37,093 nucleotides of DNA from an uncultured Campylobacter sp. (lineage in GTDB: Bacteria > Campylobacterota > Campylobacteria > Campylobacterales > Campylobacteraceae), in NCBI GenBank assembly GCA_900319915.1, contig ONQI01000103.1, positions 1 through 37,093 of the forward strand, read 5' to 3'. How positions within the stretch are numbered: position 1 is the stretch's first letter; the number at the start of each line of letters is the position of its first letter. This document shows, piece after piece, positions 22,907 through 34,436 of this stretch. The notes beneath the pieces were generated by a model, which ran no database searches, had not been told where the DNA came from, and worked only from the letters and a program-made list of their open reading frames with translations. A program made the translations under genes and the position numbers.

Positions 22907-23496
22907 TAAAAATCACGGACGCTAAGTTTCTTATTTCCAGCCCAAATTTGGCGCTATGTCCTGATTTTGGTATGAGCGAAGTAGCTTTTTTAGGACGTAG
23001 CAACGTGGGTAAGAGCTCGCTTATAAACGCGCTAACCGGGCGCAATAGCCTTGCTAAATCAAGCTCCACACCGGGCAAAACGCAGCTTATTAATTTTTTC
23101 GAGGTTGCGTTCGACAGGGATGGCGAAAAAATTCCCGCGATTTTTGTGGATTTGCCGGGCTTTGGATATGCGAAAGTTTCCAAATCCATGCATGCGGACT
23201 GGCATTCAAATTTGAACGACTATCTCAAAAATCGTCCCCATATTCGCAGTTTTGTGCATCTCGTAGACGCTCGCCATTTTGACCTTGAAGCGGATTTAAA
23301 TTTGAAAGATTATTTGCGCTCTTTCGTGCGCGGCGATCAAAAAATTCTCACTATTTACACTAAGGCCGACAAGCTCAACCAAAGCGCCAAGGCCGCGCTT
23401 CGCAAAGCAGACCCTGCGGGACTGCTCGTCTCCACGCTCAAAAAAACTGGGCTTGACGAGGCTAGAGAAGCTGTGTTTGGGAGTATGTTCGCATGA
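22903..23496 (+). CDS. engB: GTP-binding protein EngB/YihA
   Basis: GRSNVGKSS, SSTPGKTQLINFF, DLPGFGYA, TKADK. Confidence 0.96.
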   Translation: MIKITDAKFLISSPNLALCPDFGMSEVAFLGRSNVGKSSLINALTGRNSLAKSSSTPGKTQLINFFEVAFDRDGEKIPAIFVDLPGFGYAKVSKSMHADWHSNLNDYLKNRPHIRSFVHLVDARHFDLEADLNLKDYLRSFVRGDQKILTIYTKADKLNQSAKAALRKADPAGLLVSTLKKTGLDEAREAVFGSMFA

Positions 23497-24128
23497 GTGG
23501 AGTTAAATTTGAAAATAGCAATTCAAATTTGAATAATAATCAAGCCGAAGTAATTTTACGCAAGGCTCGCCCTAGAGACATCGCCGCCATGCAAGCCCTA
23601 GTCGCTCCCGAAGTCGCCGCCGGGGTGATTTTGCCTCGCGCCGACGACGTGGTAGCGACCAACATTCGCTCGTATACGCTCGCATTTTCGGTAGGTCCAA
23701 AATTGAATAGCGAGGAAACCGAAAATTTAGTCCGCATAGCCGGGCAATCACGCGAAGCGCGGGGTTGCGGGGCGGTGAGCCCCGACCGCAAAGACGGGCT
23801 TTGCTCGTCTGCGGAATCAAATTTGATAGGATACTGCGCTTTGCATATCCATACTGCCGCCTTAGCCGAGGTGCGCTCTCTCATAGTCTCTCCTTCTCAT
23901 AGGGGTCAAGGCGTGGGAGGCGCGCTTGTTCGAGCGCTCCTTGATGAAGCTCGAGAACTTGGCCTTAAGCAAGTTTTTGCGCTTACGTATCAAGATAAAT
24001 TTTTTGAAAAGTTGGGATTTAAACAAATCCCCAAAACCGACCTCCCGGCCCAAAAAATATGGTCGGATTGCGTCAAATGTAAACACTTTCCAACATGCAA
24101 CGAGATCGCGCTAATTTATCCTCTTTGA
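23493..24128 (+). CDS. GNAT acetyltransferase (short ArgA-like), carrying an in-frame repeat insertion
   Basis: LRKA...ILPR, AEVRSL, HRGQGVG acetyl-CoA loop, VFALTY...FFEKLGF, KIWSDCVKC. About 45 extra residues at 23688-23822. Confidence 0.88.
   Translation: MSGVKFENSNSNLNNNQAEVILRKARPRDIAAMQALVAPEVAAGVILPRADDVVATNIRSYTLAFSVGPKLNSEETENLVRIAGQSREARGCGAVSPDRKDGLCSSAESNLIGYCALHIHTAALAEVRSLIVSPSHRGQGVGGALVRALLDEARELGLKQVFALTYQDKFFEKLGFKQIPKTDLPAQKIWSDCVKCKHFPTCNEIALIYPL
23727..23813 (+). repeat. 87-bp palindromic repeat (family B, coding copy)
   Basis: 83/87 identical to 27230-27315. Internal hairpins CGCG-AAG-CGCG, CGGGGC-N5-GCCCCG and AGACGGGC-TTT-GCTCGTCT. Confidence 0.92.
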
Positions 24129-26382: not shown

Positions 26383-26413
26383 TTCGCGCGCGGCTCGCGC
26401 TCACTGCTCGCGC

Positions 26414-26538
26414 TTTTTGGCGATTTCGCGCGGGATTTGCAAAATCTCGCACGATGAACCTTTTGTTTTATTCACGCTCGATTTTTGCTTCACGGCGTGC
26501 AAATTAGCCTAAAAATCGCTTCGCCTTATTCCCCACGC
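26414..26538 (+). repeat. Family C intergenic repeat, copy 1
   Basis: 26489-26527 matches 31375-31412 at about 30/39. Shared CGATTTTT(T)GCTTC; both copies run into TTCAAATTTGAA. Confidence 0.55.
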
Positions 26539-26739
26539 TTCAAATTTGAATAATTGGTTTTCTTGCCCCTAGCGCGCCGCGAAACGCTCATCGCGCCCGC
26601 GCGACGGGTGCGCGCTAGCATTGCGAGCGAGCAAGAGGGGCGCGGCAATCTTGACTATTTACGAGCTACAAATCAAATTTGAATTAAACGTTTTTTTGGT
26701 AATTTGAAGGCGAGATTGCTTCGCCACGCTCGCAATGAC
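26539..26739. mobile_element. MITE/REP-like palindromic element (family A, copy 2, inverted relative to copy 1)
   Basis: 26539-26584 is 41/46 identical to the reverse complement of 11386-11431. Perfect inner inverted repeat CATTGCGAGCG (26619-26629)/CGCTCGCAATG (26727-26737). Confidence 0.65.
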
Positions 26740-26751
26740 GGCAAATTTGAA

Positions 26752-27147: not shown

Positions 27148-27229
27148 TAAGATTTTCCAAGATATAATTCAAATTTGAATTGCGCCACGTCAAGGGTATA
27201 ATTCAAATTTGAACCAAAAATACAAAAAA

Positions 27230-27315
27230 TTAGTCCGCATAGCCGGACAATCACGCGAAGCGCGGGGTTTCGGGGCGGTAGCCCCGAGCGCAAAGACGGG
27301 CTTTGCTCGTCTGCG
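27230..27315 (+). repeat. 86-bp palindromic repeat (family B, intergenic copy)
   Basis: Near-identical to 23727-23813; preceded by two TATAATTCAAATTTGAA direct repeats at 27163 and 27197. Confidence 0.92.
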
Positions 27316-30726: not shown

Positions 30727-31299
30727 ATGTTCAAATTTGAAAATAGTTTATTCGAGCGCGAACTAGCCGCGCATGCTGAAACTGTCGCCAAAATGAGCGC
30801 GTTAGCCCCGCAAGTCGCAAAAGCGAACCAAATCATCGCAAACGCCCTAAAAAACGGCGGTAGAGTGTTAATCTGCGGCAATGGCGGCAGCGCGGCGGAC
30901 GCGCAACATTTCGCAGCCGAGCTCACGGGTCGCTACAAAACCGAGCGCACCCCGCTTGCGGGAATCGCGCTCACTACCGATACTTCCGCGCTTACCGCGA
31001 TTGGCAACGACTATGGCTATGAGGAGGTTTTCGCTCGTCAATGTGCCGCTTTGGGTCGCGCGGGCGACGTGCTGGTAGGGATTTCTACTAGCGGAAACAG
31101 CGCGAACGTGCTAAAAGCCTTTGCCACCGCTAAGAGGGTGGGTTTATCCACCATAGGACTAAGCGGCAAAGGCGGCGGAGCGATGAACGACGCGTGCGAG
31201 CTAAATATCGTCGTGCCCGCTTCCGACACGGCGCGAATACAAGAGATGCATATTCTAATCATTCACACGATTTGCCAAGGTATTGACAACGCATTTTGA
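30727..31299 (+). CDS. gmhA: Phosphoheptose isomerase
   Basis: [34 protein letters not shown]. Confidence 0.97.
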
Positions 31300-31309
31300 G
31301 CGGCTTGTC

Positions 31310-34436
<3,127 letters not shown>

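Follow-up and report, generated by a model that had tools for sequence, protein, structure and literature searches.

An N-acetyltransferase gene of an uncultured Campylobacter sp. contains a long in-frame segment that closely matches an intergenic sequence nearby, which raises the question of whether a mobile repeat has entered a conserved coding sequence and, if so, how. The gene lies on contig ONQI01000103.1 of assembly GCA_900319915.1, of which positions 1-37,093 (the window, a stretch of 37,093 nucleotides) were analyzed. The assembly is 82% complete (1.36 Mb, 48% GC), and the sequencing runs come from ruminant and other gut metagenomes. The features of the locus and of its intergenic counterpart, in window coordinates, are as follows.

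23493-24128, plus strand: host open reading frame of 211 aa, an ArgA-like short N-acetyltransferase (GNAT, PRK07757); NF005840 score 179.3 bits against a cut-off of 154
23502-23513 (degenerate) and 23522-23533 (exact), unstranded: two more 12-mer sites, in a 19-residue N-terminal extension (sequence)
23696-23707, unstranded: left palindrome copy TCCAAAATTGAA, two mismatches to TTCAAATTTGAA (sequence)
23697-23816, plus strand: inserted unit of 120 nt or 40 codons (P69-E108), from left 10-mer to right 10-mer (alignment and sequence)
23707-23722, plus strand: spacer between left palindrome and core, common to the addA and rsmE copies (copy comparison)
23723-23813, plus strand: element core of 91 nt with four hairpins (profile and folding)
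23730-23745, 23751-23759 (GAA triloop), 23769-23783 and 23793-23809 (TTT triloop), plus strand: core hairpins (folding)
23816-23827, unstranded: right palindrome copy ATCAAATTTGAT, with an exact TCAAATTTGA 10-mer at 23817-23826 that reads S-N-L (sequence)
27202-27213, unstranded: exact 12-mer TTCAAATTTGAA left of the intergenic copy (sequence)
27226-27315, plus strand: intergenic copy of 90 nt, one base short, the nearest neighbour of the coding copy

The insert in the acetyltransferase gene

The host open reading frame was assigned to PRK07757 by a score above the curated cut-off and an intact GNAT core. On one side lies yihA/engB, whose stop codon is overlapped by the GNAT start ATG, and on the other an ORF which, from gene order and sequence, we take to be at the mreD position, followed by a presumed penicillin-binding protein gene. 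The best solved relatives by both sequence and fold were the M. tuberculosis ArgA structures 5yge and 5yo2 (fold match to Rv2747/ArgA, probability 1.00), and 35 invariant columns are kept. The 19-residue N-terminal extension (23493-23550) is absent from orthologues.

The initial annotation described 45 residues (66-110, window 23688-23822) between YTLAF and LIGYCAL, and this stretch was found as described; as a measure of added sequence it was too long, since about five of these residues make up the normal turn. Analysis of the 115 sequences that could be parsed among the best 120 database matches revealed a loop segment of 10 residues in 103, 11 in six, 15 in two, 32 in two and 108 in one, compared with 51 in the query, so that 40-41 residues have been added. 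The predicted gap was also observed on alignment with orthologues, 27 of 29 having no long insert. The annotation had held that the same loop in distant orthologues would speak against an insertion; two orthologues, G022 and G009, do carry long inserts at this site, but these are unrelated in sequence and gave no match to the element model. An ancestral loop was ruled out on this evidence. A metagenome scan for the GNAT recovered 44 distant orthologues and no close strain.

An assembly chimera, the other objection foreseen, was rejected because contigs from a second and a third study span the insert region, the former from 23360 to 23849 with 0 differences and the latter from 23703 to 24102 with 4. 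The identical GNAT protein is present on 14 contigs. Two copies of TCAAATTTGA delimit the 120-nt unit, and without it the loop would exceed those of the orthologues by 0-1 residue. Sequences 23727-23813 (87 nt) and 27230-27315 (86 nt) agreed at 83 of 87 positions with three substitutions and one gap, exactly as annotated, and the BLAST E value of 3e-36 places this match beyond chance. The degenerate palindromes on either side of the insert were likewise confirmed. The intergenic copy lies between cyclophilin-like and cytochrome c genes, and its right 10-mer has decayed.

In the structure model the insert falls between strands 61-67 and 110-119, in the GNAT beta2-beta3 hairpin, and lies outside the core (pLDDT 39-68 for the insert, >90 for the core). 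The catalytic core is intact by alignment and model, and the GNAT with its appendage is predicted to be likely to stay active. Since other lineages hold unrelated long inserts in this loop, it is, on comparative evidence, tolerant of insertion in several lineages. Unrelated inserts of approximately 22 to 98 residues were seen at the same hairpin in L002, L003, P0118, P0074 and P0084. Those of G022 and P0118 contain many AAATTT sites or S-N-L words.

The repeat family and its host genes

To list coding and intergenic copies genome-wide, as the initial annotation had proposed, an nhmmer profile of the 91-nt core was run with one iteration against the genome and, as a control, against the reversed genome. 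This search revealed 60 loci, rising to 65 after iteration, when seven were gained and two weak loci dropped out; the reversed genome gave no match. Genes were called with a purpose-made caller (1,395 genes, 91% coding). A total of 25 of the 65 copies lie in frame inside called genes, in both orientations, and the dispersed coding repeat was thus borne out. Twenty copies sit in 19 host genes named by family scans: this GNAT, hisIE, nnrD, mdh, an MMPL/RND transporter, ubiX, coaE, rsmE, addA, hypF, two GT2 glycosyltransferases, a D-cysteine-desulfhydrase-like enzyme (weak match), mobA, pldA, pgeF, trmN6-ykgJ (two copies), an AMP-binding enzyme and uvrC. The copies in pldA and the AMP-binding enzyme are partial and lie ahead of the matched domain. 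A gap at the element was observed in the orthologues of thirteen element-bearing genes in total, including seven of seven further genes, each aligned with 3-5 relatives, and, in comparison with genome G006, hypF, pgeF, mobA, a PLP enzyme and one GT2 gene.

Each in-frame copy is predicted to add approximately 35-45 residues in surface loops of the host protein. The subfamily with stops in its sense frame was found in genes seven times in antisense and once in sense; the other subfamily was found 16 times in sense and once in antisense. The use of both orientations and of different frames gives unrelated insert peptides, and these peptides drift (54-75% identity). Four insert peptides gave nothing at E<=10 in NCBIfam and Pfam. 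The sense-frame peptide had six matches in 1.84 billion representative proteins, five in this lineage or its sister and one a low-complexity chance match, and a search for the insert peptide among longer proteins returned nothing. In contrast to the element, five other repeat groups of this genome were absent from genes (0 of 123 segments; Fisher p 8e-14); most of their copies do have some open frame, and all five groups also lie near a 10-mer. In the window these groups were seen at 26406-26529, 26550-26650, 26704-26740 and 31296-31412; they consist of long hairpins of 120-130 nt and a short CGTC-REP-like repeat, mostly beside a 10-mer.

Three further element-bearing frames were noted. At L113 (G000:C81:5028-6359) a trmN6-type tRNA methyltransferase and a CxxCxxCC (YkgJ) protein form one 443-codon frame with two element copies; in G006 and G022 the two genes are adjacent but not joined. 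That the element brought about this fusion was made less likely by one low-depth contig from another study, which keeps the frame without the second copy. At L109 (G000:C44:626-1918) a copy lies in frame at the N-terminus of a D12-class adenine methyltransferase (PF02086), which, judged by its class, we presume may be the RAATTY methylase. At L121 (G000:C28:6669-7346) the element lies in frame and extends the N-terminus of a protein that we take, from its motif, to be RNase HII.

The core folds as four separate short hairpins, and in the centroid fold computed for the intergenic copy its ends are unpaired. Covariation was seen in hairpins 1 and 4, with 220 and 233 Watson-Crick pairs compared with shuffle means of 190 and 188 and maxima of 204 and 204, respectively, in a comparison where the shuffle ignores relatedness and the hairpin-picking pattern itself fixes some pairs; hairpins 2 and 3 are too invariant for a covariation signal. 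That the hairpins are conserved and covary suggests that a protein recognizes them. Triloops such as GAA and TTT characteristically cap stable hairpins of single-stranded DNA, a hint that the signal resides in DNA and not in RNA. When RNA parameters were used, the top strand folded better in 38 of 43 copies; comparison of the window with Rfam gave no match to any RNA family.

The median identity between copies was 70%, the median to the nearest neighbour was 84%, and no identical pair was found among the 43 full-length copies. The GNAT and intergenic copies, 3.5 kb apart, are among the closest pairs at 94%. A sister lineage carries the element at the same pgeF site (protein identity 79%). Because of the low copy identity and the element shared with the sister lineage in pgeF, the family is, as its sequences read, mostly old and decaying. 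The initial annotation had taken the match to the intergenic copy as a sign of recent insertion, and this reading was weakened: that copy is only the nearest neighbour, and the insert is common to strains of other studies.

The 12-mer palindrome and the probable spread of the element

The 12-mer TTCAAATTTGAA is present in 1,561 copies in the 1.36-Mb genome, 41 of them exact copies in the window, compared with 0-18 per genome in 120 other genomes of the family. Its 10-mer core has 2,131 copies versus 30 expected; 1,245 are in coding DNA, in 654 of the 1,395 called genes, and the density is seven times higher between genes. Within proteins the 12-mer reads as S-N-L or K-F-E words. Comparison with G006 covered 1.2 of 1.75 Mb and 654 orthologue pairs, in which 615 coding 10-mers were distributed over aligned positions (443), gaps (82) and regions outside the alignments (90). 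The exact 10-mer was present in G006 at only 13 of the 443 aligned positions, and thus it commonly arises by substitution. These pairs also revealed 125 insertions of at least five residues in this genome compared with 22 in G006, and the exact 10-mer was found in 43 of 116 element-free insertions versus 10.2 expected (maximum 19 in 1,000 draws). Occurring near once per kb, far above expectation, in both coding and non-coding DNA, the 12-mer is by these counts a species-specific highly iterated palindrome that behaves like cyanobacterial HIP1. Its AAATTT core is a RAATTY site, which is described as methylated in C. fetus (PMC13436318) and as an uptake signal in C. jejuni (10.1101/2024.09.10.611283).

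The initial annotation tied the insertion to this 12-mer. In this genome the link held, with a 10-mer to the left of 52 of 60 copies (background 10.7%) and to the right of 28 (background 3.5%); it did not extend to related Campylobacter elements, which lack the 12-mer. Both flanks were kept in 22 of 48 full-length copies, and the commonest unit was 111 nt or 37 codons (7 of these 22; range 111-149 nt). Among coding copies, 11 of 13 had a unit length divisible by three, compared with 4 of 9 among intergenic ones. The left 10-mer adjoins the element, with a fixed minimum spacing between the two, and spacers of 5 to 50 nt are common to several copies. Collapsing the unit to one 10-mer left approximately 0-3 extra residues relative to orthologues in 6 of 10 testable genes and failed in four (rsmE +8, PLP enzyme +10, MMPL +14, mdh -7 to -13); orthologue loop lengths were fitted better by removal of the whole stretch from 10-mer to 10-mer than by a unit two codons shorter. 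We consider TTCAAATTTGAA the likely target site as judged from these flanks, and the left palindrome at 23696-23707 is likely one half of a target duplication. With a palindromic target, duplication and element end are hard to tell apart. Conceivably the right 10-mer began as the end of the element itself and was completed afterwards, because in relatives the element has a T(C)AAA end and no 10-mer close by. No clean empty site in a close strain was identified among the contigs of other studies; the only candidate, a single contig of low depth, has 16 nt in place of 136, which is no simple collapse to one 10-mer.

Short DNA matches to the element were found in 8 of 150 family genomes, and the second subfamily was matched in 4 of 18 genomes of the genus, in one case at 78% over 100 nt. 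A 31-nt element pattern gave nothing in 185,579 species genomes. Exact matches to a 23-nt pattern were found at 18 loci, of which 12 are in Campylobacter, one is in Helicobacteraceae and the other five lie outside these groups. The 10-mer was absent from the 3-kb surroundings of all listed related loci. Related copies are mostly intergenic, many of them in prophage-like regions and many just upstream of start codons; a few are in-frame parts of long prophage-like ORFs in oral Campylobacter genomes (L164, L173, L176, L167 and L034), one of which is a DUF935 portal and another presumably a baseplate-like gene. The copy in the Mu-like portal gene corresponds to a gap of only 14 residues, in a poorly aligned linker, relative to phage CAM-P21. 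Searches of plasmids and phages gave no element match. Tandem arrays with a 100-nt period set the element ends without reference to the 12-mer and, because they occur in genomes that lack it, indicate that the element can spread without the 12-mer. Such tandem arrays, together with inverted pairs, were seen in other Campylobacteraceae (L250, L251, L262 and L042) in a BIME-like arrangement.

We also searched for a mobilizing enzyme. In the 82% complete genome no match was found to PF01797 (Y1 transposase/RAYT), for which the control was positive in 6 of 14, or to PF01548 (IS110 transposase) and PF07282 (TnpB). A motif scan of the 1,395 called proteins gave no small HUH-Y1 or GIY-YIG candidate, and no transposase was seen by eye among the ORFs beside 21 related loci.

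What was observed directly is the repeat family with its flanking sequences, its in-frame copies and the corresponding gaps in orthologues. From these we think it probable that a dispersed four-hairpin repeat of approximately 100 nt spread as a non-autonomous mobile element, inserting at TTCAAATTTGAA and duplicating the 10-nt core. An element at low copy in several Campylobacteraceae would have expanded in this lineage, mobilized via folded single-stranded DNA by an enzyme acting in trans. Insertion at the 12-mer would usually yield a unit of 111 nt, and coding insertions would be common because 1,245 of the 2,131 target 10-mers lie in coding sequence. Open-frame copies in a surface loop or linker would be tolerated and fixed and the rest purged, and the GNAT would be translated with a 40-residue appendage in its beta2-beta3 hairpin. 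The insert is most likely near-neutral baggage.

Insertion by such an element has to be weighed against recombination, in which no transposase acts and the 12-mer serves as a HIP1-like site of recombination or DNA uptake; any sequence between two 12-mers, the element among them, would then be copied to a further 12-mer through recombination or a template switch in natural transformation or repair. The 10-mer excess in element-free insertions, the surplus of insertions over G006, the shared spacers, the RAATTY core described as methylated and as an uptake signal (PMC13436318, 10.1101/2024.09.10.611283) and the failure to find transposases of three families in the 82% complete genome all favour it. 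We nevertheless regard it as unlikely: the element forms 100-nt tandem arrays in genomes without the 12-mer, the other repeat groups adjoin 10-mers and stay out of genes, and the hairpins suggest recognition by a protein. That the HIP1-like palindrome doubles as an insertion platform, with DNA that includes a codon-sized hairpin element moving between 12-mers without a transposase, is possible though doubtful. If it does, a DNA uptake or methylation signal would be rewriting the proteome, with S-N-L-N/F-K-F-E words in approximately half of the proteins and loops of 35-65 residues in dozens of enzymes.

Insertion into AT-rich DNA without duplication, IS200/IS605- or REP-like, with the flanking 12-mers arising later by a genome-wide bias that converts near matches such as a TCAAA end, would fit the frequent substitution origin of coding 10-mers, the T(C)AAA ends of relatives that lack the 12-mer and the complete right flank in fewer than half of the copies. 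It would not account for the fixed minimal distance of the left 10-mer, the sharp 111-nt mode or the better fit of full-unit removal to orthologue loops, and a Y1 transposase was not found in the 82% complete genome; we judge it quite improbable. Functional inserts, whose hairpins act on mRNA (processing or pausing) or are removed, or whose peptide regulates the enzymes, are highly improbable. The better folding of the top strand, the position of some intergenic copies just ahead of a start codon and the fixation across strains are in line with a function, but orientations and frames give unrelated peptides, which drift, other lineages have unrelated inserts in the same GNAT loop, and Rfam gave no match.

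Comparison with known repeat systems

Rickettsia palindromic elements (RPEs) are in-frame repeats in unrelated conserved genes, described in the sources cited here as having no known mobilizer (Ogata et al. 2000, 2002, via PMC10969869 and PMC2229807). The initial annotation proposed an RPE-like process; a dispersed hairpin repeat in frame in the GNAT and other genes stands, whereas its mobility and translation are inferred. Both systems are palindromic repeats of 100-150 nt found between genes and in frame in unrelated conserved genes, with a large coding share (25 of 65 here and reportedly nearly half in R. conorii). The Campylobacter unit (111-149 nt, intergenic and in 19 named host genes) compares with an RPE range of 105-146 nt. 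In contrast, RPEs form one long stem-loop with terminal inverted repeats of approximately 12 bp, while the element has four short hairpins and is bounded by a probably duplicated 10-mer, itself a highly iterated palindrome; only the palindromic flanks are self-complementary. RPE hosts are Rickettsia, whereas this is a free-living gut Campylobacter whose coding copies are known from sequence alone. The TIGR01045 (RPE1) model gave nothing in this genome and was silent in 14 of 14 controls, and the comparison with RPEs is by model and description only.

Intragenic GTAG/CGTC REPs (PMC3733652) are likewise described as hairpin repeats that lie in frame within genes for housekeeping and DNA repair (uvr and recB types; here uvrC and addA). 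The GTAG-23 REPs of T. roseum are reported inside a small palindrome with hundreds of genomic copies (PMC3733652), a precedent for a repeat inserting into an abundant genomic palindrome. REPs differ in that they are short, carry a tag, consist of one hairpin or a dimer and have a RAYT (Y1) partner, whereas the element is a 100-nt composite with a 91-nt core and no terminal GTAG/CGTC tag, and no such partner was found in the 82% complete genome; the separate CGTC-type repeat of this genome is not in genes. A classical MITE shares terminal inverted repeats with an autonomous IS, and the ends defined by relatives here are not inverted repeats. On target duplication, the other MITE feature, the evidence is mixed: of 48 full-length copies, 22 have the 10-mer on each side, collapse fits 6 of 10 genes, and no clean empty site was found. 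YPAL/RU-2 repeats, described with internal inverted repeats, a composition that is not AT-rich and target duplications at dyad-symmetry sites, and Caulobacter CIR (approximately 110 nt, two stem-loops, a methyltransferase-site link) are similar but mainly intergenic (PMC2229807); both were set against the Campylobacter element by description only. HIP1 is described as recurring approximately once per kb, both inside genes and between them, as arising largely through substitution and as having a methylation site in its centre (10.1101/2024.09.10.611283). The Campylobacter 12-mer resembles it in these respects, with a putative methylation site as its core, and differs in being 12 nt long, AT-rich, limited to one species among 121 family genomes and linked to protein insertions.

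A literature search of titles and abstract openings returned no account of the element or 12-mer in Campylobacter, and the portions consulted of reviews on RPE- and REP-type repeats (PMC10969869, PMC2229807, PMC3184786) contain no mention of Campylobacter. In-frame repeats have been described in several bacteria before, so that their presence here is less surprising. The element bears on the movement of RPE-type coding repeats and on their frequent in-frame position. It offers a concrete rule, a defined target abundant in coding DNA and a modal unit of 37 codons, and a built-in contrast in the sister repeat families of the same genome that stay out of genes. A species-specific palindrome in Campylobacter also links the spread of coding repeats to the role of HIP1-like sequences, and the 12-mer may merit study of its own. 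Because the terminal-repeat and tag features differ, the element is not filed as an RPE, MITE or REP. Taken together, these comparisons indicate by analogy that it works like RPEs and intragenic REPs, as these are described in the available accounts (PMC10969869, PMC2229807, PMC3184786, PMC3733652).
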